A stretch of DNA of 64,000 bases from Thalassotalea marina (lineage in GTDB: Bacteria > Pseudomonadota > Gammaproteobacteria > Enterobacterales > Alteromonadaceae), in the NCBI RefSeq assembly GCF_014656435.1, contig NZ_BNCK01000006.1:1-64000 (forward strand), in the 5' to 3' direction. Under the pieces are notes generated by a model. It had not been told where the DNA came from. It searched no databases and saw only the letters and a list, made by a program, of their open reading frames with translations. A program made the position numbers and the translations under genes. Shown piece after piece: positions 9,580 through 33,325 of the stretch. Positions within the stretch are counted from its first letter, which is position 1; each line of letters starts with the position of its first letter.

Positions 9580-9797
9580 AAAACTTCATTAAAAAACGGC
9601 AATTCGCTCATTGTAGCGAGGGAAAATATCAATTGAAATAACTAACTAAAGAAGTGCCGAAATATCACTTTTTTAACTAGCGTAACAGCTATTACAGTAA
9701 TACATCAGCAATTCATCAGCCCGAAAACATTGTACTCTAGTGACAATTATTCAAAGGTAGCTTTAACTTTTGTTTTAAAATACAAATCAGAGGAACA

Positions 9798-11105
9798 ATG
9801 AAGATTTTTAAACAAGTTACTTTTTGCCTATTAACTATTTATTTAACTTTTGGTGTGATAAATCAATCTATCGCAAATGACACGATACAATTTAACACCA
9901 ACGAATTTAACGCTAATAAATCATTAGTCATAAAACTACCCGAAAGTTATCAGCAATCGCCCAATCGACATTACCCTGTTGTTTACCTGTTAAATGCTAA
10001 CGACTTTTATTTTGGTGATATCACCGAGCATTTTGAACAAACCATCACACGACTAACTTTGCAAAATCGCATTCCTGAAAGCATTGTTGTCTACGTGAAT
10101 AATAAATCTTGGTATCAAGACGCTATAAACCAAGGTGACAGTTTTACAACTTTTTTAACTGATGAGGCGATTACAGCAATCAGCAGTAAGTACCGAGTGT
10201 TAAACAAGCACATACTCGTTGGACATTCGTACACAGGTGCTCTTATGGCAAAAAGTTTTGCCAAGCTGAGTAAGGCATTTACTCATCAACTGATCATTTC
10301 ACCAATATTCCCAGACGTTGATTTTATCCGAGGTGCAGCCAATGCTCAGCAGCCGTCAATGACCAAATACCAGCAAGCACTCTTATTTGTTGACCCGCAA
10401 AATCAACTAGATGTTAGCTTATTAACTGACATGTTATCGGCATCACAATTGCCAGAGTATTTTGATGTTAGCGTTGAACAACACACGGGGCACTTCACTG
10501 TGTTACCTGTTGCAATAACTAAAGGTATGGCAAAGATCTATGCAGACTTTTTACTGACTGAAGAAAAGTCAACGCCACTTAGTCTTGAGCAAATCAAAAG
10601 CCAATATTTAGCCGTACAAAATAAATATCAACAACCTACTGAACGCCAAGACATAGACAGTATTATTACCGCTTTTGCCTCGAGCTATTTAGAACAAGGC
10701 TATTTTGAGCAGGCTTTTGATTTGTGGCAGCACAGTAAAACTAAATTTAGACATTATTTTATTAACAGAGCGGCACAGCGTTTCATGGCTAAACATAACT
10801 ACCAAAGCGCAGAGCAAGTATGGCTAGGGCTAGCTAAAATATTTCCAAACTCTCCTTACGTTTGGCAACACCTTTTAAACCTTGCTGATACAACAAACAA
10901 TAACAAACTAAAACAACATGCTACGTTAGGCTTTGATAGTGCCGTTAAGCAATTTACACAACAAGATCACGCCATGTGGCTGGCCTATATCGAACAAACA
11001 CAGTCGATCAATCAACAGTTAAAACAAGCAGTATTAATCCGAGTTCTGCAGCAAGAGCCAAATAATGAAAAAGCACAAAGTCTTTTACTTAAACAGCATG
11101 ACTAA
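9798..11105 (+). CDS. Secreted esterase-family alpha/beta hydrolase with C-terminal TPR-like repeats (paralog of 5838-7160)
   Basis: Signal peptide. HYPVVYLLNANDFYFG. Nucleophile elbow ILVGHSYTGAL (GxSxG). C-terminal helical repeats. GAGGA RBS before the ATG. Confidence 0.65.
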   Translation: MKIFKQVTFCLLTIYLTFGVINQSIANDTIQFNTNEFNANKSLVIKLPESYQQSPNRHYPVVYLLNANDFYFGDITEHFEQTITRLTLQNRIPESIVVYVNNKSWYQDAINQGDSFTTFLTDEAITAISSKYRVLNKHILVGHSYTGALMAKSFAKLSKAFTHQLIISPIFPDVDFIRGAANAQQPSMTKYQQALLFVDPQNQLDVSLLTDMLSASQLPEYFDVSVEQHTGHFTVLPVAITKGMAKIYADFLLTEEKSTPLSLEQIKSQYLAVQNKYQQPTERQDIDSIITAFASSYLEQGYFEQAFDLWQHSKTKFRHYFINRAAQRFMAKHNYQSAEQVWLGLAKIFPNSPYVWQHLLNLADTTNNNKLKQHATLGFDSAVKQFTQQDHAMWLAYIEQTQSINQQLKQAVLIRVLQQEPNNEKAQSLLLKQHD

Positions 11106-11149
11106 GTGACATACCTCACGCCCCAATTTAAGCGCTTTAAGAAGTTAAC

Positions 11150-14100
11150 TTACTCAATGGAGTTAACTTCATCACTGCTATCTACTTTTGTCTGATTTTT
11201 ATTGTCAGTTGACAGTTCTCTGCTGATTTTTTGGATTGGCGTTTCTTTTGTTGTCGAAGCTTTCCCCGCCGGATGATTCAAATTCGACAACACATTTACC
11301 AGCTCGCCGTCTAATTGCTGCTTGTCAGCAAGTGTCTGTGCAAGAGGTGAAAATACGCTTTCAAGTTGCTGAGAGAACAAGCCAAGCACTTCACTTAAAT
11401 CATGACCTTGCTCAGATTTAGCTGATTTGTTTGGCTTTAAATCACGAACAGCGTCAGTTAGCTCAGATAAGTTAACACTATTGGGTTGTTGTAATATCTT
11501 CGCCAAATTTGTCAATTCCTTCTGCACCAATGAAACTTGCGAAGCAATATTGGCCACAGGGTTGTCACTACCACCCAGATTTTTATGGCGTACGTACTCT
11601 TCTTTGATTTGTAACCAACGATGCTGATCTTCTGGAGTTAAGGTGTTTCTTAACTCACCAAGCTTAAGTAAATTCTCTTCAGCACCAACCGTTAATGTTT
11701 GTGCTTCACCGCGATAGTGATCGGCTATCAGCTGCTCAATTTCTTGCTCTGTCATCACAGGCACAACTTTTTCTGCCATTTTATTCATGTTGCGATAACT
11801 TCCCTGCAACTTAAATGGCGGCTCTATCCGATATTTATCATCTTGAGCGGCAGAGGCAATATACTGCTCGTTGGTTTTTAACACCGTTTGTTGTATTTGC
11901 CTAATGCGCTTAATCACTGCGATGATTTCGTTAACTTCTGCTTGAGAGTATCCGTGTTTTAAATCACTGGCATTGACCGGTTCGCCATCAGCTTGTTTGA
12001 TCAGCTGATACAAGTCATCCATATCTCGTGTTGCCAATGGTGCTAAATAACGGTTACTGGTTAATGAGTTTTCGATAAAACTCAATGAAAATTCATATTC
12101 TCGGCCACTTAGCGTGTCACCTAGATTATAAATATCTGCTCGGTTCGCCAACATGTCTGGGATAGTGAACGCTTCGCCAGACTCTGTATAAGGGTTGCCC
12201 GCCATGATCACAGCAAACTTTTTACCGCGTAAGTCGTACGTTTTGCTTTGTCCTTGCCATACACCATCAACCTTTCGAGAGCCATCACACAGTGAAATAA
12301 ACTTTTGCAAAAACTCAGGGTGAGTGTGCTGAATATCATCGAGATACAACATCACGTTGTTACCCATTTCAAACGCTAGGTTAATTTTTTCTACTTCACT
12401 CCTAGCCGTTGAGTTATTTGCTTGCTCGGGATCGAGTGACACTTGGTCATGACCAATAGAAGGGCAATTAACCTTAACAAAAGTCATACCTAACTTACTG
12501 GCAACATATTCAATTAACGTAGTTTTACCGTAACCTGGTGGAGAAATAAGTAACAATAAGCCCATTAAATCGGAACGCTTTTGGTTGCCTGCTGCGCCAA
12601 TTTGTTTTGCTAAATTAGCCCCAATGATCGGAAAATAAACATCGTTAATTAACTTGTTTCGTACAAAAGAAGATAAAGCTTTAGGCTGAAATTCACGCAT
12701 ATTCAGCTGGGTTCGCTTGTGCTCTAATACTTGTTGTTTTTGCTGATGAAATTGCTTAAATGCTGGCACATGTACATCAACAAATTCTGTTAACCTTGAA
12801 ACAAACTCTTGATAATTAATAGTCAGCTGACGATCAACAATATTGCCGTGTTGCCCTAAGAGTTCCGAGACTGTTTTGTCCGTTTCAGCGGACGAGCTAT
12901 AAAACTGAGCAGCCTCGCCAAAGGTCATTAAACATGCAGCTTCCACTAAAGTATCTTCTGCTGCCTTGATCTGTTGATTCTCAGAAAAGGCACTTAGCCA
13001 AGCATAATAAAGTGCATATTGCTGCCCTGTGTGCTGGCAGGCACCAATTGCTTGTCCAATAGAATGTTCTAAGTTATTAGCTTTGAGTTGTAGTTTTAGG
13101 TCTTTAACGAGAGTTTGACTGGCTTCTTTGGTCACAAAGCTAGAATTACCCTGTGACAATTCTTCGAGTAAATAACGTGCCGCCAAAGCAGGTTGAGCGC
13201 TCAACCATACATGTTGCTGCTGAAAATCACTCAACAGTTCAGTAAATTCAGCTAATAAATCGTTGCGCAGTCCACTAGAGCCAAAGGTTTGCTCCATCAT
13301 ATTTAAATTTACGCAACGGTTTTGTATATCGATACGACTATTATCATTGAGCTGCATGCACCAAAAAGCAAGTACTAGGCGCTTTTCTTGGCAAGGATAA
13401 GCAAGTAAACCAATATCAGCTTTTAACGATAACAAAGCGTTTAAAATCGCCACTGCGTCTTGGTCATGTACCCCCTTGTCATAACCTTCTTGATACCGTT
13501 GTTCGACATAACGTTGAACAACTTTTATCAAGCTATTATCACTTGCGGCGGCGGTTAATTCGGCGATAGCTTGCAGCCCTTTCTTTTCAGCGTCAAATAA
13601 AATACTTGCCGCCAGATATTCACCGCGATACACCGTGCTATTTTCTGATATTAGGTCTTGTTGCCATAAATATTGAGTACCAGCAAACATCGAGCTGTCT
13701 ATGACTTCAAAATATTCACTGCCAGAAATATGCAACAGCATCTCGTTATCTCTTGGCAGTAACGTTAGCTCTGGCTGTTGCTTATTCACGGAAAATTGAT
13801 GATCGCCAATTTTAACTAAACTGCCGTCTGCCGAATAAATATCTGACTTATCACGTAATGCTCGAACCGCCTGCTCTTTAGCGTTTTTTAACTTAGCGTC
13901 TACATCGTCAGCTTTAACATGATCATCTAAGGCTCTAAGCTGCTCAACTAACTGTCTAAGCTTTGTCACCATAGGGTCTGCGGCAAAATAGCTATTGAGT
14001 TTATCTAGGCTGTCAAAACCACTGGTTCGACGGTCGATTCCAGACAAAATACGCTCTGCCGCTGTAAATAACGTCAAACAGCGCTTTTGCTGCGCATCCA

Positions 14101-16387
14101 TCAATTGCTGTTTATGCTGCTCGAAGTTGTCATATACTTCATCGCGTTTTGCCAAGATTTCGCCATGAAACTCATCATAGTCACTAAATTGGCTTTCTAA
14201 TTCTTCCAGCTGGATCAATAACTGCGATAGCTGCTGATCACACTCTTGAGGTGTGTTACTGGCGTTGAGCGCACTGGTTACGCTTTGGTTTAGTAATTTA
14301 AATCGTGCGCCAAATTCAGCACGAGCTTCATCAATACCAACATTTTTCACTGCTAGATCAGCGTTAGCATTAACTCGGTTAACTAAACTAAAAACCGCAG
14401 AGATATCTTCCAGAATACGTGTACGTTGTCTGCTGTCTTCAATATCTATCGACAACATAGTTTGATTAAGTAACTCAAGCCCTGCAATAAGCGTTTCAAT
14501 GCGCTCTTTAATCGGTTTTAGCGCAGAAATTGCATCACATTGAGCCACTGCCTGTTCAATCGATTCTATTTCTTGATAATAAGGTGTTAATGCATTTTCT
14601 TGCTGTAAAAAATCAGCCGTTTGTTGGCTTAATGATTTGCTTAATTGGTCAAGTTGTTGGTCTATTTGATCGATGGCCTCAACATCAATGTATTTAAGTT
14701 CTTTGTGAGAAATAAGCTCACCTTTAAAGCCAGATAATGCCACCAAACCTTCAACATATTGTGCCGCATTATCTGCCGACATATCGGCCAATTCACTTGA
14801 AAGTTGCGCAAACTTCTCTTTTGCGCCAATCAATGTTTCATCTGAGTTTTGCTTAATTGCGGTAACTTTTTCAAACTCATCTAATGCCAATTCTGCCGCT
14901 TCAACCACCTGTTGTAACAATGCATACAAAGAAGCTAGCTCTGAATCATTTAACCAGTGATAGTGGTCAAACAGTTGCTTCGCCTCTTTGACCAAATCGT
15001 TAAAGTGCACCATGCTAGGCGTTTTAACGCCAATTAATTTAACCACGCTGTAAAGTGCAGAAATACCTCTTACTAATTCTGCATTACCTATTTTTCCAAA
15101 GAAGCTGTTATCCGCTGGTTGGCTGCTCGCGTGCTCTTCACTGCAAAATGGTGTTGTCCATATTTGCATTGAGTGCAGTCTTGATGGCTCAGATTCGGCT
15201 GCAAAAATTACTGCTCGGCCATTTTCGTAAATACTTTGACCATGACCGTAAATCGGGTTTTGTAGCGTTCTCGTAATTAAGTTATAAGCAAACAACGCAT
15301 ATTGGCCTGCACTTGGCTCATAAAAGATGTAGAGAAAGTCTTCACCGTTAGGTGACTTGATAATGCGGTGAAGCTCTAAATTATCGGATTTGTCATCAAA
15401 ACTTTTATGGTCACCATTTTGTAAGTAATAGCCACCGGGGAAAATAATGCCATGATCTTCTGGTAATTGAATACAGGAATTTGCAATGGCATCTTGTCGC
15501 AAGACCTGCTGAGTTTTGGTATTAAAAATTAAATGGCGAGTGTGCTCTTCACGATAAGGCTTCACCTTTAACAGGATCAGTTCACCAACCATAGCATAAT
15601 CAATATCAGCATCATCAAGTGACTGGTGTGTATCTTCCACTGGTTCACTATAAATGCCTTCGCCTGCCTCAGTATTATTTTCCACTTTGAGTGTTAGATT
15701 GCCACCCGTGCATTCTACAAACAAAGTATCAAACAAGTTGTAATGGGCAAACTTGCCACTTACTTGCTGGTCACGAGTTACACTTTGCCATTCAAAATCA
15801 AAGTTTTCAGGCTGTTTTAGTGCACGTTCGCCTCGGTTATCGATGTAAGTCACTTGGTGGTTAGCATCGATTGCCCACTGAAATACCCGAATATCATCGA
15901 GACGTTCACCTATCTGAAATATGGCAAACACTTTGCTGCCTTGACGGTAAACATGTGCTAGGAATGTTTTTTTGTAATAGGTGTATAGCTCATCAAAATC
16001 ACGAACAAATTCTGGCTCTTCCAGAAAACTGCCTTCAATAGGTAAGTCGACAATATCGACACCTTCGTCGGTAACTTCCAACTTATGCAAACTGAAAACA
16101 TCCGCCACGGTGATGTTACGTTTTAGACCCAAAAATACGTTGTAGCCAAAAAGTAAGATATCACCAATGGCTGCGATATCACGAGCAACGCAGTTGTTTT
16201 CTGTTCTCACTCTAACACGAGACTCAACCGCCATATCGGTATCACCAAAGGTATTGATACGATCGGTGTTAAGTTGTTGAATTTGTGTATTTAGCTCTGT
16301 ACCTAGGTGGGTCAGTCTACGCTGAATTAGCTCGTAAGAACCGCCTTCTGCAACAGCCTGATTAGTGACATTGTCCTGAATTGCCAT
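11150..16387 (-). CDS. Giant (1745 aa) multidomain protein: N-terminal ~420-aa beta-rich region, ~800-aa alpha-helical/coiled-coil middle, and a single AAA+ ATPase module (AAA_5/MoxR-dynein-like) at residues ~1270-1450
   Basis: Walker A ISPPGYGKTTL (DNA ~12520-12545). Walker B VMLYLDDIQH (DD rather than DE). Sensor-1-like AVIMAGNPYT and RADIYNLGD. ATG with a GGAG RBS. It is the last gene of the patatin/NfeD/flotillin operon. No TM segments seen. Confidence 0.75.
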   Translation of the reverse strand: MAIQDNVTNQAVAEGGSYELIQRRLTHLGTELNTQIQQLNTDRINTFGDTDMAVESRVRVRTENNCVARDIAAIGDILLFGYNVFLGLKRNITVADVFSLHKLEVTDEGVDIVDLPIEGSFLEEPEFVRDFDELYTYYKKTFLAHVYRQGSKVFAIFQIGERLDDIRVFQWAIDANHQVTYIDNRGERALKQPENFDFEWQSVTRDQQVSGKFAHYNLFDTLFVECTGGNLTLKVENNTEAGEGIYSEPVEDTHQSLDDADIDYAMVGELILLKVKPYREEHTRHLIFNTKTQQVLRQDAIANSCIQLPEDHGIIFPGGYYLQNGDHKSFDDKSDNLELHRIIKSPNGEDFLYIFYEPSAGQYALFAYNLITRTLQNPIYGHGQSIYENGRAVIFAAESEPSRLHSMQIWTTPFCSEEHASSQPADNSFFGKIGNAELVRGISALYSVVKLIGVKTPSMVHFNDLVKEAKQLFDHYHWLNDSELASLYALLQQVVEAAELALDEFEKVTAIKQNSDETLIGAKEKFAQLSSELADMSADNAAQYVEGLVALSGFKGELISHKELKYIDVEAIDQIDQQLDQLSKSLSQQTADFLQQENALTPYYQEIESIEQAVAQCDAISALKPIKERIETLIAGLELLNQTMLSIDIEDSRQRTRILEDISAVFSLVNRVNANADLAVKNVGIDEARAEFGARFKLLNQSVTSALNASNTPQECDQQLSQLLIQLEELESQFSDYDEFHGEILAKRDEVYDNFEQHKQQLMDAQQKRCLTLFTAAERILSGIDRRTSGFDSLDKLNSYFAADPMVTKLRQLVEQLRALDDHVKADDVDAKLKNAKEQAVRALRDKSDIYSADGSLVKIGDHQFSVNKQQPELTLLPRDNEMLLHISGSEYFEVIDSSMFAGTQYLWQQDLISENSTVYRGEYLAASILFDAEKKGLQAIAELTAAASDNSLIKVVQRYVEQRYQEGYDKGVHDQDAVAILNALLSLKADIGLLAYPCQEKRLVLAFWCMQLNDNSRIDIQNRCVNLNMMEQTFGSSGLRNDLLAEFTELLSDFQQQHVWLSAQPALAARYLLEELSQGNSSFVTKEASQTLVKDLKLQLKANNLEHSIGQAIGACQHTGQQYALYYAWLSAFSENQQIKAAEDTLVEAACLMTFGEAAQFYSSSAETDKTVSELLGQHGNIVDRQLTINYQEFVSRLTEFVDVHVPAFKQFHQQKQQVLEHKRTQLNMREFQPKALSSFVRNKLINDVYFPIIGANLAKQIGAAGNQKRSDLMGLLLLISPPGYGKTTLIEYVASKLGMTFVKVNCPSIGHDQVSLDPEQANNSTARSEVEKINLAFEMGNNVMLYLDDIQHTHPEFLQKFISLCDGSRKVDGVWQGQSKTYDLRGKKFAVIMAGNPYTESGEAFTIPDMLANRADIYNLGDTLSGREYEFSLSFIENSLTSNRYLAPLATRDMDDLYQLIKQADGEPVNASDLKHGYSQAEVNEIIAVIKRIRQIQQTVLKTNEQYIASAAQDDKYRIEPPFKLQGSYRNMNKMAEKVVPVMTEQEIEQLIADHYRGEAQTLTVGAEENLLKLGELRNTLTPEDQHRWLQIKEEYVRHKNLGGSDNPVANIASQVSLVQKELTNLAKILQQPNSVNLSELTDAVRDLKPNKSAKSEQGHDLSEVLGLFSQQLESVFSPLAQTLADKQQLDGELVNVLSNLNHPAGKASTTKETPIQKISRELSTDNKNQTKVDSSDEVNSIE

Positions 16388-16450
16388 GAAAAACTCCGTG
16401 AAGATTGGGCAGCCACTTATGTTATTTAGAGCATAAGTGGCTTAGTAACA

Positions 16451-18433
16451 CTATTTAACGTCGGTTGTATTTTTGTCACCTAAATTTAATAAGTTTGCCA
16501 ACATACCTTTTTGGCTATCGTCTGCGTTGTTCAGTGTTGATAACAACTTAGCCATATTAACGTTTTTCAATGTTTCACTGGTTTGATTAACCCCTGAAAG
16601 CACCCCTCCTAAATCATCCATAATATTGCGATCACCGTTTAATTGATCTTTGAACAGGCTTTGAACCGTTTCACTCTCGTTAACTAAGCCATCAATTGAT
16701 TTACCAACGGTAATAGACTTCATGAACTGTCTTAAGAACTCTCCGTCACCGCCCATGATATTAATATTGGCTTCTGCAAGTGCAGTTGCTAGAACTTGGG
16801 CTTGTTTTTCAGCTAAATCAACGCTGTTATCTAGTTTTGCAAGCGTCAACTCACGTTCTTGATTTAAGCGTAAGCCAAAGGTTTCAAATTCACGCGCTTG
16901 CTCTGACATGGCGTTTAATACTTCTTGTTTCTCTCTTAAACCTGTTGCCTCTGCTAGGGCTTTTTCTTCGATACCTTTTGCTTCGGCAGTCAATTTAAGT
17001 TCAAGCGACTTAGCAATCGCCTCACCTTCTTTCTCTTTAGCCTCAGCTTGCGCCAATGTTACTTGTGCATCAGCTAAACCAGCTGACGCGGCTTCTGCTT
17101 GGTTACCTTCAGCAAGGATCTTCTTAGCTTCCGACTGTTTAGACGCGGCTTTTAACTCTGCATCAGCAATAACTTGTAGCTCTTTCGCTTTAAATTCTGC
17201 AGCCTGCTCTTTAGCCTTAGCTGCTTCAATATCTTTAACTAACGCTTCTTCTGCTTCAGCCTGTGCTTTTATTACTTGTTCGTCTTTTAGGCGCGTTGCT
17301 TGTGATACCACGCGAAGATCTTTAATTCGCTCTTCTTCTTCCGCAACACTTTTTTCAACCGCTATACGCTCTTTTTGCACCTGAGCAATATTTTTACGTT
17401 CAACTTCTAGCGCTTTTTCTTTATCTATACGTAAAGTTTCTACTTCTTTTTCACGGTCAATAGATTCAATTTGACGAGCGCGAGTTACTTTTTCTTGTTC
17501 AATTGCCACAGCTCTTAAGCGGTTCTGTTCAGCAACTTCAGCTTCACGCATTTTGTTTTCTTCAGCAATAGCAACAGCTTGCTCTGTTTGAATGCGTGCT
17601 TGCTCAGACTTAGCTCGCTCTTCTTCAACAATTTTAGCTGTTTCTGCTTCTTCTCTTGCTTTAACAGTAGCAATCTCACGTGCTTGTTTAGCGGATGCAT
17701 CAGCCAACTGGCGGTCCAGCTCTAATCGTTTTTCTTCTGCTTCAATGTCTTGACGTTTAATTCGTATTTCTTCTTGGCGTTTTAAATCGTTAGTTTGAAC
17801 ACTTTGTTGCGCCGTTAATTCAGTGATTCTGCGAATACCTTCTGAATCCATAATGTTGTTTGGATCAAGATCGTTAATTGACGTTTGCTCTAAAAAGTCG
17901 ATGGCAACATCTTCTAAAACAAAACCAGATAAATCTTGCCCAATCACTTCTTTAATTTTGTCTCTAAAAATATCACGCTGAGTAAATAATTCAGTAAAGT
18001 TAAGCTGTTTACCTACCGTTTTAAGGGCTTCTGAAAATTTCGCTTCGAATAATTCTTGTAATGTTTCAGGGTACGCAGAACGTTCACAACCTACCTGCTT
18101 AGCAACACGTAAAATGTCTTCTTTAGTTTCATTTACACGGATATAAAAGGTGATGATGATGTCAGCACGAATATTATCTTGGCATATCAAACCAGAGCGA
18201 CCTTTACGCTCCAGTACCATACGCTTTGTTGAAATATCCATAACTTCTTTTTTATGGATAATTGGAATGACCATGCCACCAGTTGTACTAATGGTAGGCT
18301 CAGCTCTGAGCTTATTGATAATGAGGGCTTTGCCTTGTTCTACTTTGTTATAAAACTTCGCCACCATGATTAATAAAGAAAAGACGACTAATACGCCAAT
18401 GCCAATAGCTAGGTAAAGTGGTTCCATTACCAT
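16451..18433 (-). CDS. Flotillin-like SPFH/band-7 protein (YqiK-like) with a long E/A/K-rich coiled coil
   Basis: N-terminal TM (LAIGIGVLVVFSLLIMVA) followed by an SPFH core (…MVIPIIHKKEVMDISTKRMVLERKGRSGLICQDNIRADIIITFYIRV…). Then ~300 aa of EA-rich heptad repeats. 660 aa. Confidence 0.8.
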   Translation of the reverse strand: MVMEPLYLAIGIGVLVVFSLLIMVAKFYNKVEQGKALIINKLRAEPTISTTGGMVIPIIHKKEVMDISTKRMVLERKGRSGLICQDNIRADIIITFYIRVNETKEDILRVAKQVGCERSAYPETLQELFEAKFSEALKTVGKQLNFTELFTQRDIFRDKIKEVIGQDLSGFVLEDVAIDFLEQTSINDLDPNNIMDSEGIRRITELTAQQSVQTNDLKRQEEIRIKRQDIEAEEKRLELDRQLADASAKQAREIATVKAREEAETAKIVEEERAKSEQARIQTEQAVAIAEENKMREAEVAEQNRLRAVAIEQEKVTRARQIESIDREKEVETLRIDKEKALEVERKNIAQVQKERIAVEKSVAEEEERIKDLRVVSQATRLKDEQVIKAQAEAEEALVKDIEAAKAKEQAAEFKAKELQVIADAELKAASKQSEAKKILAEGNQAEAASAGLADAQVTLAQAEAKEKEGEAIAKSLELKLTAEAKGIEEKALAEATGLREKQEVLNAMSEQAREFETFGLRLNQERELTLAKLDNSVDLAEKQAQVLATALAEANINIMGGDGEFLRQFMKSITVGKSIDGLVNESETVQSLFKDQLNGDRNIMDDLGGVLSGVNQTSETLKNVNMAKLLSTLNNADDSQKGMLANLLNLGDKNTTDVK

Positions 18434-18500
18434 GTGTTCTTCCTCTTTGTAGATGTTGGCCTATATTAACGGCCTAAAATATGGGTAGGTTATATTCAAA

Positions 18501-19127
18501 TTAGATTGCATAACGTGCAACGATATAGACGTGCGAATCAGCGTTATATTCGATGAGTAACACTTTGTCGCCACGATTAAAAAGCTGATCTTCGGCGCAA
18601 CGAACATCAAGTAAGATTTCTGCACCGTCGTTAAAAATTTTTGCTTGACCAAATGTTGGCGTCACGCTGCTTGTTGAAATGGTTGCTTCTAAACCAACAA
18701 ACTTAGCACTGCTTGCCGTTTCAGCAGTGGCAAACATAGACTTAAATGGTCTTAACATGATTGCCGCTATTGGCAGTGAGATAAAAAAGATAACGACATT
18801 TGCAATCGCCCCAGCGCCAAAATACAGCCAACCACTGGGTAACAAATCAAGCACATAATACTGTGTGTAAACGCTGATTAGCCAACACACGAGAGCAACA
18901 ATGCTAATGACCAGTGTGAAAGGAATACCAGATAAGCCAAACGTTAACATAAAGCCAGATAGACCACCTATTGAACCATCGGCGTCAATATCCGCGTCAA
19001 CATCACCAGAGAAGTCTAAGTCGACCAGCCCTAAAAGACCAACAATCCAATAAACAACGACAACTCCCAATACCACAGAAAATATGACAGTTGGGAAGTT
19101 AGTAGAGACTTGAAATAGCTCTTCCAT
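18501..19127 (-). CDS. NfeD-like (YqiJ/YuaF-like) membrane protein with a C-terminal OB-fold
   Basis: Four hydrophobic segments, then a C-terminal beta-rich tail (KFVGLEATISTSSVTPTFGQAKIFNDGAEILLDVRCAEDQLFNRGDKVLLIEYN). It has the canonical position upstream of the flotillin gene. Confidence 0.7.
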   Translation of the reverse strand: MEELFQVSTNFPTVIFSVVLGVVVVYWIVGLLGLVDLDFSGDVDADIDADGSIGGLSGFMLTFGLSGIPFTLVISIVALVCWLISVYTQYYVLDLLPSGWLYFGAGAIANVVIFFISLPIAAIMLRPFKSMFATAETASSAKFVGLEATISTSSVTPTFGQAKIFNDGAEILLDVRCAEDQLFNRGDKVLLIEYNADSHVYIVARYAI

Positions 19128-19325
19128 GCTTCATCCTAAAAATACATCACCTAATAGCAAGGAGCATCTAAAGCAATGTGTATTATCAATAAGTTGATTA
19201 GTACCTAGCACCATCAACGTAAACAATTTGTTAATAATAGAGAAACTACCACACAAAAATACGACTGCCTATAAAAAATTTCTGCTAAGCCTTTGTGCTT
19301 ATTCAAACCTTGCTATTGAATTGAA

Positions 19326-21788
19326 TTAAATAAACTCAGTAAAAGGAACCAATTCATTCTTTAATAGCCAATATTGTGTAATAGGGTTATGAATTGGCGA
19401 GTCGCTAGGCACCAATTCGGTTTTACCCCAAAAAACGGGATACCCCATCAACTTTGATTCGGCTAGCAGGTTTTGCTCAGGTAAAACAATGCGATAATAA
19501 CCGTGTTTGTCTTTAAAAAAGCCATCGCGGTCTATGATCAATTCACCATTTTTAACATTGTAGCCAGTCCACACTTTTTGTTTGCTGTGCCAAGTTGCAA
19601 AACAAATCAGGTACAGTTGATTGTTTTGTTTGCTAAGCCTTATTGGGTGGCGATCATCATCAAAGGTATTTTTGCCATCAAGTTCAAAATCACCATCAGA
19701 AACTGGCACTCTAAGCTCTACCACCACCTCTTCTATCTGCTGATATTCAATGGCATTTATTTTGTCTTTAATAAAACTGGCCAACATGCTCAGTAATGGC
19801 CCATTAATTAAACCTAAATTTAACAAATTTGACGATGTGACCATTTGCTCAACGCGGTTTGAAAGTGCCATCAACCCCATTTTAAAATGGGCCATATAGG
19901 TGTCGTATTCAGGGTAGTTTTTATCAAATGGCGCTGGCAATGTTGTTGGAACTTTACCATGTGGGATCGCAGAGGCTTGCTGCATAAATTCCATTGCACA
20001 ATACCTGGCAACGTCTACCTCATAACGGCTTGGTATCGGCGACATAAAACCCGCAAATGCAGCTATAGGACTTCCCGGTAAAAATATTTTTTCGAAATTT
20101 TCATCAGACTTTTTATAAAATGGACCAATCGCAATGAGTTGGCTATTGCGACTTTTTGCCGCTAACCCACTAATAATATCAACAAAACTAAACACCAATG
20201 CCGTCATGATTTTCTTTTGTTCGTCTGCAGAAAACTCAGTGATGTCATTACTGACGTCAATTTGCTCTGCTAATGGCGATAAATCTGCGACAACGGAGTC
20301 TTTTTCATTAGCTAAGCGCCAGATTTCACCGGCAATAGTGGTTGGCAATGTAGGAATGGGATCTTTGTCAGATAATTCAGTTAAAAAATTAGCGATTTGA
20401 GCTTTTAAATTTAAAAAATTATCGTTATTTGGCGCAATAGCATTGGTAATACATGCTCTGAGCTCATTTCGCATTAATAACTTGTTTGCGATTTGAAAAG
20501 TGCGATGTTCCTCTTTTGCTTCGGCTTGTGCACTAGAAACGGTTGCCTGAGTCACTACTTGCCCAATAAGCTTATCCAGCGACGTTTTTTGATATAAATC
20601 GTTACCGTCAAATGCTCTAAAAACTTTTAGCGGCCCTGCTAACGCTTGTTGCGTCTGCCAATCGGTCAACCCAGGTAAATAATAATTAGGCTCAGCACCT
20701 ACGTTAGGGTCAACAAAAATTATCCTTCGTTCATAATTGGTATTTTTATCTAAGCCATCAATATGAGAAGCAAGTTTAAACGCTTCAGCAACAGGCTCGT
20801 TATTAAATGCTCCACCATCTATGTAGCTAAACCGCCCAGAGCTTTCTCCTTTATATGGCCATAAAGTCGACGGATATTCCCAGTTGTATCGCTTTAAGGT
20901 CACTGGCTCAAATGCCACCGGAAAACTGCCACTGGCGACAGCCGTTGCAACGATATGCTTCCAGTCGTCACCAGAGCGTAGGTCAAAGGTTTCATCAGGT
21001 ATTTGATCGCCCCAATGCAAACGGACCCAACGTTTAGGGTGCTGGTCTTGTTGGGATAGTTTTTCACTTGGCACCGCAGCAAAGTTAATATCAAATATTC
21101 GCATTTCTTTGTGCTGAAACGATGTAAGTGCATCATTGGTTGCAATATTGCTATCTTTGGCAACGGGATATAATTGGTAAGCTTTAGCATGAATTGGGTT
21201 TAAGTTGGCAATGCTGCAGCCATAAAGTACTCGATTAGCCAGCAACATGTGTTTTGCTTTATCACTGTTTTTATATTGCCCACTTGAAGGCATTAAATTT
21301 GCGCGAGCAATATCCACCACTGTTTTTTTATTGACCACACCACATTGAAATTTAAGCGGTGGAATATTGGCATCGCCATCTGGTTCTAACAATCGCTCTA
21401 AAGTAATTTGGTTAACCCAAATATCATTCATCACCTCTTGTGCCAGTTGAGCATCAACTAATTGCTGTTGCTTTTTATCACTAAACCCTTGCCACTTTTT
21501 GTCACTAATATCGTAAAGCGTTTTTAATGATTGTATTGCATTGTTTCTTTTTTCTGCGCCTTTATTGGGAAAAGCTAAACATTTGAGCATGATCCCTAAG
21601 CTCATTGCCCCAGCACTGGCACCAGCAAACACATCAATTTCAACACTATCATAGGGTTGATTTTGCCCATCGACACCATAAAGCAAGGCGAGTTTTATTG
21701 ATTCAGTCAGTGCAGCGCCACTAAATGATCCCAGTGAAACACCGCCGCCCATTGCAAATCCTAGTTTTAATTTAGTTGCCATATCCAT
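19326..21788 (-). CDS. Patatin-like phospholipase (820 aa) with a ~420-aa C-terminal extension of unknown function. It is the first gene of the operon
   Basis: Oxyanion-hole Gly-rich motif FAMGGGVSLGSFSG, nucleophile elbow GASAG (GxSxG), and catalytic Asp in YIDGGAFNNEP (DGG). ATG start. 350 bp of AT-rich promoter region upstream. Confidence 0.8.
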   Translation of the reverse strand: MDMATKLKLGFAMGGGVSLGSFSGAALTESIKLALLYGVDGQNQPYDSVEIDVFAGASAGAMSLGIMLKCLAFPNKGAEKRNNAIQSLKTLYDISDKKWQGFSDKKQQQLVDAQLAQEVMNDIWVNQITLERLLEPDGDANIPPLKFQCGVVNKKTVVDIARANLMPSSGQYKNSDKAKHMLLANRVLYGCSIANLNPIHAKAYQLYPVAKDSNIATNDALTSFQHKEMRIFDINFAAVPSEKLSQQDQHPKRWVRLHWGDQIPDETFDLRSGDDWKHIVATAVASGSFPVAFEPVTLKRYNWEYPSTLWPYKGESSGRFSYIDGGAFNNEPVAEAFKLASHIDGLDKNTNYERRIIFVDPNVGAEPNYYLPGLTDWQTQQALAGPLKVFRAFDGNDLYQKTSLDKLIGQVVTQATVSSAQAEAKEEHRTFQIANKLLMRNELRACITNAIAPNNDNFLNLKAQIANFLTELSDKDPIPTLPTTIAGEIWRLANEKDSVVADLSPLAEQIDVSNDITEFSADEQKKIMTALVFSFVDIISGLAAKSRNSQLIAIGPFYKKSDENFEKIFLPGSPIAAFAGFMSPIPSRYEVDVARYCAMEFMQQASAIPHGKVPTTLPAPFDKNYPEYDTYMAHFKMGLMALSNRVEQMVTSSNLLNLGLINGPLLSMLASFIKDKINAIEYQQIEEVVVELRVPVSDGDFELDGKNTFDDDRHPIRLSKQNNQLYLICFATWHSKQKVWTGYNVKNGELIIDRDGFFKDKHGYYRIVLPEQNLLAESKLMGYPVFWGKTELVPSDSPIHNPITQYWLLKNELVPFTEFI

Positions 21789-22154
21789 ATACCTATCCGT
21801 AGCCTCACCACTAAGATAGTTTATTTTTTAGGCATGGCAAATTAAAAACTACTTAATGCTCTTGTACGGAACAACACTGCGAGATAAACGTATTTCTGAC
21901 ATAACTCTAGCTAAGCAACATATTGATTTAGTTAAAAGATACTCTTCACTGCCAAACAGTTGAAGCAATATTGGTATGTTCTAATCAATGATCAGTCACG
22001 ACATTGTTATAGTATAACAATACCTTAGCCTGCATTGGTTAACTACTGGCAGGTTATCTCAACTTTTAGTCGTCCAAACGCATTTAAGCTGCAATTGGTG
22101 TCTTTTCGTCCTAAGTTATCGTGGAAAAATAAAATAATAATTTTAAGGACTCTA

Positions 22155-23852
22155 ATGAAAAAGCTCTCTTTAATGGCACTTTGTGCCTCTACAGCTTTTA
22201 GCATGTCAGCAAGCGGCAATTCAGACCTAGACATCGCTAATAAAATTCGCGCAGAAGGCTTCTACAACTCAGAAGTAATGCATACTTTACAATACCTTAC
22301 TGACAATATTGGCCCAAGGTTGTCTGGTTCTCCTCAAATGAAGGAAGCTAACGAGTGGACTTTAAAGCAGCTAGAATCATGGGGCTTAAAAAATGCTTAT
22401 TTAGACCCATTTGAGTTTGGCCGTGGCTGGACTCACAGCGCTGCGTCAATTGATTTAATTTCTCCACGTAAAGTGTCGTTCCACGGTATTCCAGTTGCTT
22501 GGACACCAGGTACTAATGGTGACGTTACCGCTGAAGTTATCATGTTTGAAGCGTCTTCAATTGAAGATTTGAAAAAGTACAAAGGTAAACTTCGTGGCAA
22601 AATCTTAATGATGGGCGAAGGTCGCACTATTGGTGAGCCTCAAAGAACTATTTTCAAACGCCATGAGTCTTCAGATTTAGGCAAAATGAAAGAGTTTCCA
22701 GTAAACCGTGGTCCAAGTCATCGTTCTGACCGTCATCCTCACTACCATGAAACAAGTAAACAGCGTTACCTTTTCAACAAAGCGTTAAATAAATTCTTGA
22801 AAGAAGAAGGTGCAGTAGCTGCTGTTTACCGTAGCTGGCGTCAAGGTGGATTAGTAGGTATTTGGGGTAAGTCACATCAAGTAGGCAATACCTTCCCAAT
22901 TCCAGCTATGGTAATTGAAGCAGAGCAATATAACTTAATTAACCGTTTAATGGATGATGGCGATAATCCAAAAATCACCATGAACGTTAAAGCGAAATTC
23001 CATGACGAAGATCACAACGCATACAACACTATTGCGGAAATTCCTGGTACATCGGAAAATCCAAAAGTTGTTATGTTAGGTGGTCACTTAGACTCATGGC
23101 ATGCAAGTGATGGTGCTGTTGATAACGGTGCTGGTGTTGCGGTTGTCATGGAAGCGGTTCGTATATTAAAGGCATTGGATATCAAGCCTAAAAACACGAT
23201 TCGAATTGCCCTTTGGTCAGGTGAAGAGCAAGGTTTATATGGCTCTCGCGCCTATGTAGAAGAGCATTTTGCAACGCGTCCAAAACCAACTGATAAAGAT
23301 GAAGCGGCATTACCATCTTACTTATGGAAATCTCCAGGATGGCCAATTCAACCAAAATCAGACTACGAAGACTTCTCTGTATACTTCAACATGGATAATG
23401 GTAGTGGCCGATTCCGTGGTATTTACACAGAAGGTAACGTTGCCGTTAAGCCAATTTTTGGTGGTTGGTTTTCACCATATTCTGATTTAAGCACGGGTAC
23501 TATTACAAACCGTTCTACTGGTGGTACTGACCATGAATCATTTGATGATGTAGGTTTACCGGGCTTCCAGTTTATTCAAGATCCTCTTGATTATTCATCA
23601 CGTTTGCATCACACCCATATCGACTCGTTTGACCATGTTCTTGAAGACGATATGAAACAAGCATCAGTTCTTATGGCGGCTTTTGTTTACCAAGCGGCGA
23701 TGAGAGATGACGTGTTACCACGTAAACCAATGCCACAAGGTCCTTCGAAGTTGCAGAAAGAACAAATGCAACTGAAGAGTGACAAAGAGCGCAGAAAACG
23801 TGAACGCGACGCTTTACGAGCTTTAGAAGCACAAAAGTTAATTGAAAAATAA
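22155..23852 (+). CDS. Secreted M28-family zinc aminopeptidase with a PA domain and a K/R/E-rich C-terminal tail
   Basis: Signal peptide MKKLSLMALCASTAFSMSA. M28 metal ligands GHLDSWH, DNGAGVAVVME, WSGEEQGLYGS, and a HTHID segment. I place the start at 22155 (ATG, AAGGA RBS) rather than the track's upstream 22035. Confidence 0.8.
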   Translation: MKKLSLMALCASTAFSMSASGNSDLDIANKIRAEGFYNSEVMHTLQYLTDNIGPRLSGSPQMKEANEWTLKQLESWGLKNAYLDPFEFGRGWTHSAASIDLISPRKVSFHGIPVAWTPGTNGDVTAEVIMFEASSIEDLKKYKGKLRGKILMMGEGRTIGEPQRTIFKRHESSDLGKMKEFPVNRGPSHRSDRHPHYHETSKQRYLFNKALNKFLKEEGAVAAVYRSWRQGGLVGIWGKSHQVGNTFPIPAMVIEAEQYNLINRLMDDGDNPKITMNVKAKFHDEDHNAYNTIAEIPGTSENPKVVMLGGHLDSWHASDGAVDNGAGVAVVMEAVRILKALDIKPKNTIRIALWSGEEQGLYGSRAYVEEHFATRPKPTDKDEAALPSYLWKSPGWPIQPKSDYEDFSVYFNMDNGSGRFRGIYTEGNVAVKPIFGGWFSPYSDLSTGTITNRSTGGTDHESFDDVGLPGFQFIQDPLDYSSRLHHTHIDSFDHVLEDDMKQASVLMAAFVYQAAMRDDVLPRKPMPQGPSKLQKEQMQLKSDKERRKRERDALRALEAQKLIEK

Positions 23853-29329: not shown

Positions 29330-30112
29330 TTATTCAACACTTGTGCTTAAAGTTGCGTTTTTAATTTGTTCGATATAGTAATAAATAGGCCAAGTATGCG
29401 GTTTACCCAAAAAATTAGCCTCGGACTTTAATGCAGTTATATCAACACCTTGGCTATGTTTTGGCGCTTGATTACTACCAGGTACGTTATCGTCAGTATC
29501 AAAATAAGTGTTGCTAGCATCAGCACATTGGCCAAAATGATTTAACCCATAATGCCAAAACACACCACCATAAACGGATACCGGGTCAAGATAAACACTA
29601 TTAACTATCACGGATTGCCCTTCTAATGTTTGTGACTTGAGCCCTTCACAAATCCCTAAATTGACAAAAGCTCCACAGCTGTGGCCGATTACTTCAACCC
29701 GTTTAAGGTGCTGATTGGCCATTAACTTTTTGGCGACAATCTCTCCTATACGCCTGCCGTTCACAGAACATGTAAATGCGTTGTCGGCATATCGCTGCCA
29801 ATCTAAGGCGATAACCTCTGCTTGCGGATTTTTTTCTTTCAATGCTTCCTTAAGGTCAATTGCCCAAGAGTCGGCGTTATCTTTTAAGCCATGAGAAACA
29901 ACAATAACATGTGTGCTTTCACTTTGAGGAACCGATATTTGGTAAGGGGTAAAAGGCCAAAAAATGTAGCCTAGCAATACTAGAGTGACAACAACAAAAG
30001 AGACAACGGGAAAGTAAATTAAAAAGAATAATAGCCAAAACACTAGAGGTGTATGACGCTGATAAAATTTTCTAAACAAAGCGTTAATTTTCATGACAAT
30101 TCGACAGTTCAA
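29330..30112 (-). CDS. Membrane-anchored alpha/beta hydrolase (lipase/esterase-like). The likely real start is the ATG at ~30094
   Basis: N-terminal TM helix. GHSCG nucleophile elbow (VIGHSCGAF). It overlaps the upstream PPTase stop. Confidence 0.55.
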   Translation of the reverse strand: MNCRIVMKINALFRKFYQRHTPLVFWLLFFLIYFPVVSFVVVTLVLLGYIFWPFTPYQISVPQSESTHVIVVSHGLKDNADSWAIDLKEALKEKNPQAEVIALDWQRYADNAFTCSVNGRRIGEIVAKKLMANQHLKRVEVIGHSCGAFVNLGICEGLKSQTLEGQSVIVNSVYLDPVSVYGGVFWHYGLNHFGQCADASNTYFDTDDNVPGSNQAPKHSQGVDITALKSEANFLGKPHTWPIYYYIEQIKNATLSTSVE

Positions 30113-30737
30113 TAAATGTTAATTGATTTTCAGCTGGCAACACACAGGTGCAAATGTAGTTATCTTGGAGCAGATGCTGCGACACTAAGTTGTTGGCGGT
30201 AAGTAATGCTTCACTCTCTAATGAGAATAACTTTGTGAGTGAAATCTTGGTTGCTTTTGAAAGCGCTTCTTTTAATGTCCAAGCTTGATAAAAAGCACTA
30301 AAGGCATCTGACGAGTGCAACACATGGTTAACTTCATCCGCTGTTAAACAAGACACTGCCAATGCCTCTACACCACGCTTACGATTAATAAGCTCAATAT
30401 CGATGCCAATTGTAAAGTGCTGGCCAACAGCAAATATAACTGCAACCGCGTCATTAGAGTGGCTTAGTGCGCCATAGGCAAATAGTTCACCTTCAACAGT
30501 AATGTTTAACACGCTGGTATTAGTATCAAAAAACACTGCTACCGCCTGTAAACCGCATCCAAGGTGTTTCGCCACAACGTGTTTAATAAACCCTCGCGAC
30601 GCCAAAAACTGCCGCTGTGCTTTGTTACTCGTTTTTGTTGAAAATTGCGCTAATTCATTGGCCTGTAATGCCGACTTATCAAGAGCAAATTTGGCAGCTT
30701 TAGTCGAAACCGCCACATAAATAGGTTTATTTTGCAT
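30084..30737 (-). CDS. 4'-phosphopantetheinyl transferase (Sfp/EntD family)
   Basis: PPTase motifs FTIGIDIE (GxDxE) and WTLKEALSKA (W/FxxKEAxxK). 217 aa. Confidence 0.75.
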   Translation of the reverse strand: MQNKPIYVAVSTKAAKFALDKSALQANELAQFSTKTSNKAQRQFLASRGFIKHVVAKHLGCGLQAVAVFFDTNTSVLNITVEGELFAYGALSHSNDAVAVIFAVGQHFTIGIDIELINRKRGVEALAVSCLTADEVNHVLHSSDAFSAFYQAWTLKEALSKATKISLTKLFSLESEALLTANNLVSQHLLQDNYICTCVLPAENQLTFIELSNCHEN

Positions 30738-30840
30738 TCGTCATAAACGCCTTTTTGCCTATATCAATTGTACAAATGTTTGAATTTAGGGCGTATAATG
30801 CGCCATTCGAATAAAAGATGGAATACTTTAAAGGAATCCC

Positions 30841-31227
30841 ATGAAGAATGTTACTTTCTCATTATTAATGTTGTTTGCTGTTGCTGGCTGTTCAACTTCA
30901 CAACCAATATACAACGCAAATACAACAGTTCCAGTGACTATTAGCAATGACGCGATGGAAAAAGCGATTGTAGAGGCACTACTGTTTAAACGTTGGAAAA
31001 TTTTGTCACAATCTGAAGGTAAGATTGTTGCTGGTATTGAAGTAAGAACACACTATGCTGAAGTGGAAATAACGTTCGACGCTAACAAGTACGAAATTAA
31101 TTATAAAGACAGCAATAATTTAGACCATTCATCAGCTAGAAATAAAATTCATAGAAACTACAATAAATGGATCAAATTGTTAGCCACTGAAATAGATAGA
31201 AATGCATATATGGCTAAAAGCCAATAG
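30841..31227 (+). CDS. Small lipoprotein of unknown function
   Basis: Lipobox LFAVAGC|S. 128 aa. Confidence 0.5.
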   Translation: MKNVTFSLLMLFAVAGCSTSQPIYNANTTVPVTISNDAMEKAIVEALLFKRWKILSQSEGKIVAGIEVRTHYAEVEITFDANKYEINYKDSNNLDHSSARNKIHRNYNKWIKLLATEIDRNAYMAKSQ

Positions 31228-31235
31228 CATTACCT

Positions 31236-31269
31236 GAAAAAAAGCACTAATTGATTTAGTGCTTTTTTA
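31236..31269. terminator. Bidirectional Rho-independent terminator between the lipoprotein gene (+) and the end of the pigment operon (-)
   Basis: gaaaaaaAGCACTAAttgatTTAGTGCTtttttacc. Confidence 0.65.
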
Positions 31270-31288
31270 CCTTCTTCTATTCAAAACT

Positions 31289-32098
31289 TTAATTAAACAC
31301 CCAGGCAAGTCCTAACCCAACTGAAACATTTTCTTTTTGTTGCACGAGAGGGCTGTTTTCATTTTTACTACCACCGATATGGCGATAAAGCACAAAGCCA
31401 GCAAGCCACCATTGCTGTTTGCGATAAACAAGCCCAGAAGATAAGCTGGTGCCTAGGTATCCTGATTTAGCATCAAACGCTGGGCGATGAGCAAGTTGAT
31501 ACTGTTTGTCTACCTGATAATAAACATCTTGATATGTTTCAGAGGCAAAGTTTACCGTTAAACGATTTTGCCAAGTTAACTGCCCCTGATTAACTGCAGC
31601 TAATGTATGTTGTGCATGTAACGCAGTGCCATATTGCCACCCAGCATCAGACAATGTAGAAAAATCTGTCATGATTGCTTTGCGCGTGAACAATTCAGTA
31701 AAGAGCTTGTTATCTGCTGACGGCGTACCTGACAAATAATATTTGATGGCGCCGCCAAGCTGGAAAGTCCAATCAATGTCAGGCATACCAGAGCGAATAG
31801 CCACATCATCACTGTTTACGGGCAACTGCGCTGACACCGAAAAATCAACATATAAACGTTGTGTTTGCCACAAGCTGCTGAGCAGACCATCGCGATCAAC
31901 TTTGATGTGTTTGTCTTGATAATACACATAAGGCAGTGGAACTATATGTTGGCGATAATCCTTTGCCCCAGCATATTCTGGAACATGAAGCGCAAAGGCA
32001 CCAACACCAATTTCAAAAATTCGTTCAGGCTGCTCGCCAGCCTCTGTTAACGTAGCGCACAAAAGTAATAGTGCACAAAACAATCCTTGTCGTTTCAA
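31289..32098 (-). CDS. MipA/OmpV-family outer-membrane beta-barrel protein (last gene of the aryl-polyene operon)
   Basis: Signal peptide. Alternating amphipathic beta-strands. C-terminal aromatic residue (...GLGLAWVFN). 3-bp gap to the upstream KS gene. Confidence 0.55.
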   Translation of the reverse strand: MKRQGLFCALLLLCATLTEAGEQPERIFEIGVGAFALHVPEYAGAKDYRQHIVPLPYVYYQDKHIKVDRDGLLSSLWQTQRLYVDFSVSAQLPVNSDDVAIRSGMPDIDWTFQLGGAIKYYLSGTPSADNKLFTELFTRKAIMTDFSTLSDAGWQYGTALHAQHTLAAVNQGQLTWQNRLTVNFASETYQDVYYQVDKQYQLAHRPAFDAKSGYLGTSLSSGLVYRKQQWWLAGFVLYRHIGGSKNENSPLVQQKENVSVGLGLAWVFN

Positions 32099-32101
32099 TG
32101 A

Positions 32102-33325
32102 TTAGTTCCAGCGTTTAAAAATAAGAGAGGTGTTGATACCACCAAAGGCAAAGTTATTACTCATTACATGATTGGTAACAATTTCTCTGCCAGCGCCTCG
32201 AACATAGTCAAGTTCAGCACACTCTGGATCAATAGTGTCTAAATTGATGGTTGGAGCAAACCAGTTGTCATTCATCATATTGATACAAGCCCATGCTTCA
32301 ATTGCCCCACAGGCACCTAGCGTATGGCCTAAGTAACTTTTAAGTGAGCTTATTGGCACTTGCCCCAACATTTGGTGTGTTGCATGTGTTTCTGCAATAT
32401 CACCGCGTTCCGTTGCTGTACCATGTGCATTGACATAACCAATTTGTGTAGCATCCAAGTTAGCATCTTCAAGTGCTAATTTAATCGCGCCAGCCATGGT
32501 TGCTTGTGTCGGTTGAGTTACATGCACACCATCGGCATTGGTGCCAAAGCCAACAAGCTCAGCCAAAATTGTTGCGCCACGAGCTTGGGCATGTTCTAAC
32601 TCTTCTAACACCAAAGTACAGGCGCCTTCGCCAATAACTAAGCCATCTCTTGAGGCTTCAAAAGGACGAGGGGATGATTTAGGGGCATCATTTTTAATAC
32701 TTGTCGCAAAAAGTGTATCAAAAACTGCAGCTTCTGTGACACAAAGCTCCTCTGCACCGCCTGCAACCATCACTTTTTGCTTGCCATATTTAATGGCTTC
32801 ATAAGCATAACCTATGCCCTGGGAGCCAGAAGTACACGCAGAGCTAGTAGTAATAGTGCGCCCTTTTAACTCAAAAAACACACCAACATTTACTGCCGTA
32901 GTATGAGCCATCATTTGAATGTAACTTGTTGCTGTTACGCCGGACATTTCACCATTTTTCATCAAGTTACCAAAAGGCACAATAGGATTGGTTGAACCAG
33001 TAGATGAACCATACGCAATACCCGTTGAACCATCAGTTAAACAGTCTTTATCAATTAAATCTGCTTGAGTAAGTGCTCTTTCTGTCGCCAGCGTTGCCAT
33101 TAATGAAACGCGCCCCATCGAGCGAACTTTCTGTCGTTTATAGTGTTTTGGCTTTTCAAAGTCTGTTACTGGCGCCGCTAAACGGGTGTTTAATCCGTCA
33201 ACATAATCCCATTCAGACATGTTGACGACTGCATTTTCGCCTTTAACTAACGCGCCTTTAAATGTTTGCCAATCTTGCCCTAAAGACGTGATGGCAGACA
33301 TTCCAGTCACAACTACACGTTTCAT
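32102..33325 (-). CDS. Beta-ketoacyl-ACP synthase (KAS I/II-like, elongating KS)
   Basis: Active-site Cys in TSSACTSGSQGIGY. His residues in NAHGTATERGD and GHTLGACGAIEA. TAATG overlap with the upstream gene. Confidence 0.85.
   Translation of the reverse strand: MKRVVVTGMSAITSLGQDWQTFKGALVKGENAVVNMSEWDYVDGLNTRLAAPVTDFEKPKHYKRQKVRSMGRVSLMATLATERALTQADLIDKDCLTDGSTGIAYGSSTGSTNPIVPFGNLMKNGEMSGVTATSYIQMMAHTTAVNVGVFFELKGRTITTSSACTSGSQGIGYAYEAIKYGKQKVMVAGGAEELCVTEAAVFDTLFATSIKNDAPKSSPRPFEASRDGLVIGEGACTLVLEELEHAQARGATILAELVGFGTNADGVHVTQPTQATMAGAIKLALEDANLDATQIGYVNAHGTATERGDIAETHATHQMLGQVPISSLKSYLGHTLGACGAIEAWACINMMNDNWFAPTINLDTIDPECAELDYVRGAGREIVTNHVMSNNFAFGGINTSLIFKRWN

Follow-up and report, generated by a model that had tools for sequence, protein, structure and literature searches.

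The locus described here lies in a 64,000-nucleotide stretch of DNA (the window), positions 1 to 64,000 of contig NZ_BNCK01000006.1 of Thalassotalea marina, a marine gammaproteobacterium of the Colwelliaceae. Its central feature is a long gene for a patatin-like protein, followed downstream on the same strand by three further genes, here called the trio. The features to which the text refers are these:

19326..21788, minus strand: long patatin-like protein, coding sequence, listed with 820 aa but probably starting at the ATG at 21782 (818 aa)
20589..21788, minus strand: patatin catalytic domain, residues 1 to about 400
21729..21749, minus strand: Gly-rich oxyanion loop GGGVSLG, residues 14-20, with G14, G15, G16, S18, L19 and G20 invariant in 48 sequences
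21609..21623, minus strand: nucleophile elbow GASAG, residues 56-60, invariant in the 48 sequences, with Ser58 as the predicted nucleophile
20919..20936, minus strand: patatin block III, ASGSFP, residues 285-290, with G287, F289 and P290 invariant and A285 nearly so
20811..20819, minus strand: catalytic Asp motif DGG, residues 324-326, invariant in the 48 sequences
19734..20588, minus strand: family-specific helical region, residues ~401-685, with a small three-stranded sheet at 550-567
19329..19733, minus strand: family-specific beta-rich C-terminal domain, residues ~686-820
21813..21840, minus strand: promoter-like site, TTGCCA and TATCTT separated by 16 nt, lying 25-52 nt before the start codon, a consensus match only
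19128..19325, minus strand: AT-rich 198-bp spacer from the patatin stop codon to the next gene, coinciding with a break in synteny relative to other genomes
18501..19127, minus strand: gene of a 208-aa membrane protein, downstream of the patatin gene
16451..18433, minus strand: gene of a 660-aa flotillin-family protein, downstream of the patatin gene
11150..16387, minus strand: gene of a 1,745-aa protein with DUF3686, DUF7902 and AAA domains, downstream of the patatin gene

The open reading frame at 19326..21788 is a real gene under purifying selection, far beyond anything expected by chance. Compared with its counterpart in a sister genome, non-synonymous differences amount to 0.12-0.16 per site, whereas the synonymous ones have reached saturation (~0.75). 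Since lipase domain, helical region and beta domain all show this pattern, the gene is functional along its whole length. More than 230 full-length homologs of the protein were found. It is already present in the databases as a generic patatin-like protein: its NCBI counterpart (P0001, 818 aa, 100% identity) is named [quoted passage not shown] The true start is probably the third codon of the frame, the ATG at 21782. This is the start of the 818-aa NCBI annotation, and the initiator methionine of at least 90% of the homologs aligns at query position 3, the methionine of the homologs being located 2-8 residues ahead of the first strand. As for the promoter-like site, a promoter scan of the region upstream of the gene yielded no excess of such sites over shuffled sequence.

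The first ~400 residues form the catalytic domain. The Pfam Patatin profile (PF01734) matches residues 12-336 with 39.8 bits (cutoff 27.7, E = 7.4e-10) over profile positions 2-190 of 191, clearing the gathering threshold, and the predicted structure has the patatin alpha/beta fold. The preliminary description of this locus, made from the sequence alone, held that the catalytic Ser-Asp motifs and the oxyanion loop are intact within the first ~340 aa. The alignment of the family (48 sequences, 29-79% identical to the query) bears this out: the oxyanion loop, a G-x-S-x-G elbow and a D-G-[GA] motif are all present, at residues 14-20, 56-60 and 324-326, and invariant in the 48, the motif positions having been checked by translating the open reading frame. 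Between the last two lies ASGSFP (residues 285-290), patatin block III in the block definition of Banerji and Flieger 2004. Judged by these motifs and their invariance in the family, the catalytic apparatus is intact. The oxyanion loop is nevertheless a variant: Ser18 replaces the Arg or Lys of the canonical G-G-x-[RK]-G, so substrate preference may be unusual. Signal peptides are absent from all 48 family N-termini, the protein has no strong transmembrane segment, and its location is presumably cytoplasmic.

How does this protein compare with the known patatins? Plant patatin Pat17, PlpD and iPLA2-beta belong to the same PF01734 superfamily, but the T. marina protein is twice as large as a patatin domain alone, and its C-terminal module of ~420 residues has no counterpart in the solved structures or curated families. 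The only named long-patatin model to match is NCBIfam TIGR03607 (“patatin-like protein,” long bacterial patatin-related). The match reaches 32.9 bits, against a cutoff of 262.45, and covers profile positions 212-317 of 732. In T. marina and in nine distant family members it corresponds to the part of the catalytic domain from block III to block IV; the scores, 22-62 bits, stay far under the cutoff, with ~100 of the 732 positions matching and the C-terminal halves unaligned. The protein does not have the type Vd layout of PlpD either, which combines a signal peptide, a POTRA domain and a 16-strand beta-barrel. It lacks the signal peptide, no POTRA or outer-membrane barrel was matched by Pfam in its C-terminus even at E <= 10, and in contrast to the PlpD barrel its C-terminus is predicted to consist mainly of helices, next to a small beta domain.

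This C-terminal part was modelled together with the catalytic domain by AlphaFold2 from the 48-sequence alignment, with good confidence (mean pLDDT 86.2, pTM 0.84). The model consists of the patatin domain (1 to about 400), a mostly helical part (403-680), which includes a long helix at 403-447, and a beta-rich part (687-811). Invariant residues of the tail include P479, E488, R491, K545, P556, L570, G572, F578, G580, F581 and R645, and the most conserved C-terminal motif, within the helical region, is made up of K545, P556, L570, G572, F578, G580 and F581. In the beta domain W740, P770 and W807 are invariant, and D704, D712 and G742 nearly so. When the tail was modelled alone, from an alignment that differs in depth from that of the full-length model, confidence dropped at the conserved segments 546-553 and 576-580 and in the overall arrangement. 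As the loss falls exactly at conserved segments, the models are suggestive of a tail that packs against the lipase domain. Two readings of these conserved elements were tried and rejected. The “GKS” at ~545 is not a P-loop: the GxxxxGK[ST] spacing is absent, and the site is preceded by a helix and followed by a strand, the reverse of what a Walker A loop shows. A PilZ-like, c-di-GMP-binding beta domain was likewise discarded, the RxxxR and D/NxSxxG motifs being absent by eye and no Pfam match being obtained; the idea had come from GGDEF genes located near several homologs.

According to the preliminary description, the residues from ~400 to 820 contain no recognisable motif, and domain and structure searches (Pfam, NCBIfam, PADLOC, PDB) agree. 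Pfam gave no match to these residues at E <= 10. Searched one by one, 20 tail sequences yielded no recurring family, only nine different single-member chance matches. NCBIfam and PADLOC did not match the tail, PDB sequence and profile searches with it found nothing, a PDB profile search with the beta domain alone returned nothing even at E <= 10, and comparison of the tail with solved structures produced no convincing fold match. A match of the C-terminal half to a housekeeping lipid-metabolism domain, which the same description had named as the result that would speak against its reading, was looked for and did not appear. In a HMMER search of 1.84 billion representative proteins, a tail profile obtained only 245 matches at E <= 1e-3. 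Among the 150 matches listed, the module occupies the part from about residue 400 on in all complete proteins, and each of the eight complete outliers examined, up to 1,154 aa long, has an N-terminal patatin domain. Short matches begin at residue 1-5 of the protein; the one that was examined sits on a 1.6-kb contig and is probably a fragment. Fusion of the module to any other effector domain was not found among the matches listed. Being found only with this patatin clade, the tail looks like a family-specific module rather than a sensor common to effectors, at least as far as sequence searches can tell. The architecture, a patatin domain with this orphan module, is without a curated family or a solved structure, and our literature search found no paper mentioning the long patatin family.

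What do the surroundings of the gene add? Its neighbours in T. marina are an M28 peptidase, KatG, the 208-aa membrane protein, the flotillin and the DUF3686 AAA ATPase. Between T. marina and the sister genome, the M28 peptidase and KatG are 94% and 96% identical, against 79% for the patatin protein; evolution faster than that of flanking genes is also typical of accessory or conflict genes. Directly after its patatin gene the sister genome carries a convergent GGDEF gene, orthologous to positions 4899..5828 of the window. It follows that the block 5838..19127 occupies different places in the two genomes and that synteny breaks at the 198-bp spacer.

On a wider scale, the family is patchily distributed over at least six bacterial phyla, and most of the lineages in which it was found are free-living bacteria of the sea, fresh water and soil. 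From six phyla, 86 homolog loci were collected, and an all-against-all clustering of 673 neighbouring ORFs revealed no family common beyond closely related lineages. In four Gemmatimonadota loci an M19 dipeptidase directly precedes the homolog; it was set aside as lineage-specific. In Saprospiraceae and Aureispira the gene occupies a fixed position beside two genes that, judged by eye from their sequences, appear to encode phosphoglycerate kinase and an acyl-CoA dehydrogenase-like protein, so vertical inheritance looks likely there. Most contexts consist of ordinary genes of metabolism, transport or regulation, mobile or conflict genes being nearby only occasionally, and no homologs were found in plasmid and phage collections. 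The patatin gene appears to act on its own.

The explanation that we consider somewhat better than even is that of a stand-alone cytoplasmic Ser-Asp acyl hydrolase, belonging to a rare family of long patatins (~800-850 aa) whose tail serves as a built-in targeting or regulatory module. The N-terminal ~400 residues form a complete patatin domain that would cleave acyl esters of membrane or storage lipids. Its enzymatic activity and the class of its lipid substrates are presumably those of a phospholipase A, a lysophospholipase or a lipase, with Ser58 and Asp324 as the dyad and GGGVSLG as the oxyanion loop. The C-terminal ~420 residues, an obligate helical region plus beta domain, would have co-evolved with the catalytic domain. 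Packed against the lipase, this tail would most likely set where and when the enzyme meets its lipid substrate, either by targeting it to membranes or substrate or by controlling access to the active site. Such a role is proposed from the confidence of the model and by analogy with the non-catalytic parts of ExoU, VipD, iPLA2-beta and ATGL, which determine where these enzymes go and how they are activated (PMC12871566). In ATGL/PNPLA2 and other eukaryotic PNPLAs the principle is the same, in that the patatin domain precedes a long non-catalytic half governing localisation and activity (PMC12871566), but beyond the patatin domain no relationship to the T. marina protein in sequence or structure was detected.

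A different explanation, which reduces the idea of the preliminary description to a single gene and which we regard as unlikely, would make the protein a latent toxic effector. The C-terminal module would sense a trigger (phage infection, a nucleotide signal or membrane damage), autoinhibition would be released, and the lipase would destroy the cell's own membrane in an abortive-infection-like response. The patchy distribution, the evolution faster than that of flanking genes and the large orphan module would all suit such an effector, and yet the rest of the record points elsewhere. PADLOC models do not match the protein at E <= 0.1, and the Pfam and PADLOC scans matched no cyclase, other signal-generating or defence family among the flanking genes. 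That no neighbour proved conserved across the family, that no homologs were found on plasmids or phages, and that the tail, unlike typical defence sensors, was not found fused to other effector domains argues in the same direction, as do the mostly metabolic or regulatory contexts and the seemingly vertical inheritance beside housekeeping genes in Saprospiraceae and Aureispira.

The preliminary description had likened the protein to the patatin effectors of CBASS-type systems, and this analogy is not supported. CapV and CapE, patatin phospholipases activated by cyclic nucleotides, are encoded next to a CD-NTase cyclase. Their solved chains count 344 and 303 residues, compared with 820 aa for the T. 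marina protein, which has no identified cyclase neighbour, no defence HMM match and no conserved neighbour. The structural likeness is that of the fold common to patatins, as plant patatin reaches just as high a score. The gene hence appears not to be part of a CBASS-type signalling system. That the tail keeps the lipase inactive until some trigger arrives, as was also suggested, is possible. To see in it a new built-in sensor holding the lipase inactive until a specific signal (infection, envelope damage or a small molecule) is distinctly unlikely; if true, it would disclose a previously unrecognised single-protein, trigger-activated membrane-disrupting system, spread patchily across at least six bacterial phyla.

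Could the enzyme instead act outside the cell? ExoU of Pseudomonas aeruginosa and VipD of Legionella pneumophila share with it an N-terminal patatin domain, a large and mostly helical C-terminal part, and the lack of a signal peptide, and their non-catalytic part targets membranes or binds an activator (PMC12871566). On that pattern, the T. marina protein would be a secreted or injected phospholipase effector whose helical C-terminal region targets a host or prey membrane or binds an activating host factor. We hold this to be very unlikely. The C-terminal parts show no fold similarity, no domain homologous to the membrane-localisation or Rab-binding domains was found, and neither a secretion system, secretion genes nor a chaperone context was seen among the annotated neighbours of the homolog loci.

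There remains the relation of the gene to the trio, at the head of which it was first placed as the leading gene of an operon. The 198-bp spacer that separates it from the trio is three times longer than the gaps within the trio (63-67 bp). Scans of the spacer, which proved uninformative, detected no clear terminator or promoter (fold z-score -1.7). Its comparison with the region upstream of the Thalassotalea montiporae trio revealed only the similarity of an AT-rich background, in which no conserved promoter could be called. Since no terminator-like site was found, transcription may still read through from the patatin gene into the trio in T. marina. Other genomes tell of no such association. 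Within 10 kb, not one of the 86 patatin loci encodes a relative of any of the three downstream proteins. In the two further genomes in which the context of the trio was compared, T. montiporae and Pseudoalteromonas rubra, the three genes stand in the same order without a patatin gene and are preceded by a divergently oriented gene, so that there the trio has to be transcribed from a promoter of its own. Across Thalassotalea, Colwellia and Thalassomonas the identity of the flotillin is 85-91%; the patatin protein, by contrast, turned up in few relatives. These comparisons offer no evidence for a functional patatin-trio operon, and the patatin appears not to be a conserved partner of the flotillin/DUF3686 trio; the operon-leading position is thus not supported. 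That in T. marina the lipase is nonetheless co-transcribed with the membrane protein, the flotillin and the DUF3686 AAA ATPase for a joint remodelling of membrane microdomains, as the shared strand, the distance of 198 bp, the lack of a detected hairpin and the plausible action of both protein sets on or at membranes might suggest, is highly improbable given the long spacer, the patatin-less trios, a linkage seen in no other genome examined, the contrast in conservation between flotillin and patatin, and the GGDEF gene that comes next in the closest patatin homolog found (79% identity).

A long patatin with a tail of unfamiliar sequence will not surprise the specialist, and an annotated, rare and uncharacterised enzyme whose surroundings suggest no system promises a modest practical return. 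Of more use is the negative result: the gene should not be counted as a CBASS-like effector or as a member of a flotillin operon. Its interest lies in the fact that regulated enzymes of the patatin type, which attack membranes or remodel lipids, turn up repeatedly, in pathogenesis (ExoU, VipD), in phage defence (CapV, CapE) and in lipid metabolism (ATGL, iPLA2-beta), and that in each case a non-catalytic partner or domain determines the biology. For the long patatins, solving the module of ~420 residues could uncover a novel mode of control for a patatin lipase.

The patatin gene is located at a rearrangement hotspot, since the gene content on either side of it differs between the window and L006, the corresponding locus of the sister genome. 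On one side, the patatin gene of L006 abuts an ortholog of the GGDEF gene found at window 4899..5828, while in the window these two genes are separated by about 13 kb (5838..19127). This block is made of two esterase-like/TPR genes, a regulator and a flotillin trio, laid out as follows:

5838..7160 (-), protein of about 435-440 aa with a putative esterase domain at the N-terminus and TPR repeats at the C-terminus
7501..9579, CadC-like/PD40 regulator (Trans_reg_C plus PD40 beta-propeller)
9798..11105 (+), protein of about 435-440 aa, of similar layout as judged by eye
11150..19127 (-), three-gene unit encoding a 208-aa membrane protein, a 660-aa flotillin-family protein and a 1,745-aa DUF3686 protein

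The regulator is thus flanked by two paralogous-looking products, with that of 9798..11105 having no Pfam match. On the other side, L006 carries three extra genes between the M28 peptidase gene and the patatin gene, encoding a histidine kinase, a response regulator and a 271-aa protein.

The divergent neighbor of the patatin gene is this same peptidase:

22035..23852 (+), M28/M20 peptidase ORF, listed start TTG

That start is probably too far upstream: a signal-peptide-like MKKLSLMALCASTAFSMSA begins inside the ORF, at nt 22155, and the L006 ortholog is 565 aa long.

GGDEF-domain genes also lie a few kb or less from the patatin homolog at several loci of other genomes, mostly gammaproteobacterial (L006 9898..10827; L004/L019 5636..7057; L005 6514..8001; also L041 and L082). 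Such genomes carry many GGDEF genes each, and this proximity may therefore be due to chance. The patatin protein itself showed no c-di-GMP-binding motif.

In Mucilaginibacter gracilis (L001 14330..21917), a complete bpMoxR cluster (bpX0-bpX4 and a MoxR-type AAA gene) is found just downstream of the patatin homolog, as is a DDE transposase; among the loci seen, only this one has this arrangement. L053 is labeled as a Luminiphilus MAG, but its neighbors suggest mis-binning of the contig: they are of the Saprospiraceae/Aureispira type, with pgk and, upstream, the same lipoprotein-like gene. L061, labeled as a Klebsiella pneumoniae MAG, looks taxonomically misplaced too.

Elsewhere in the window, a long run of same-strand genes extends from 29330..33325 (-) to about 48 kb. 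Its first genes encode a lipase-like protein (PF00151/DUF676), a 4'-phosphopantetheinyl transferase, MipA and a beta-ketoacyl synthase. This could be a cluster for lipid biosynthesis of the fatty-acid or polyketide type.

Within the trio, the 208-aa protein is of the multi-pass membrane type, has no match in Pfam, and holds the position usually occupied by NfeD. The 1,745-aa protein contains DUF7902 and an AAA domain along with DUF3686 (E = 2e-186), a family described as "ATPase involved in DNA repair"; no mention of DUF3686 was found in the literature searched. The trio's gene order is kept in Thalassotalea montiporae and Pseudoalteromonas rubra, and its flotillin shares 85-91% identity across Colwelliaceae. 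The pairing of flotillin and giant AAA ATPase is conserved and may merit separate attention.
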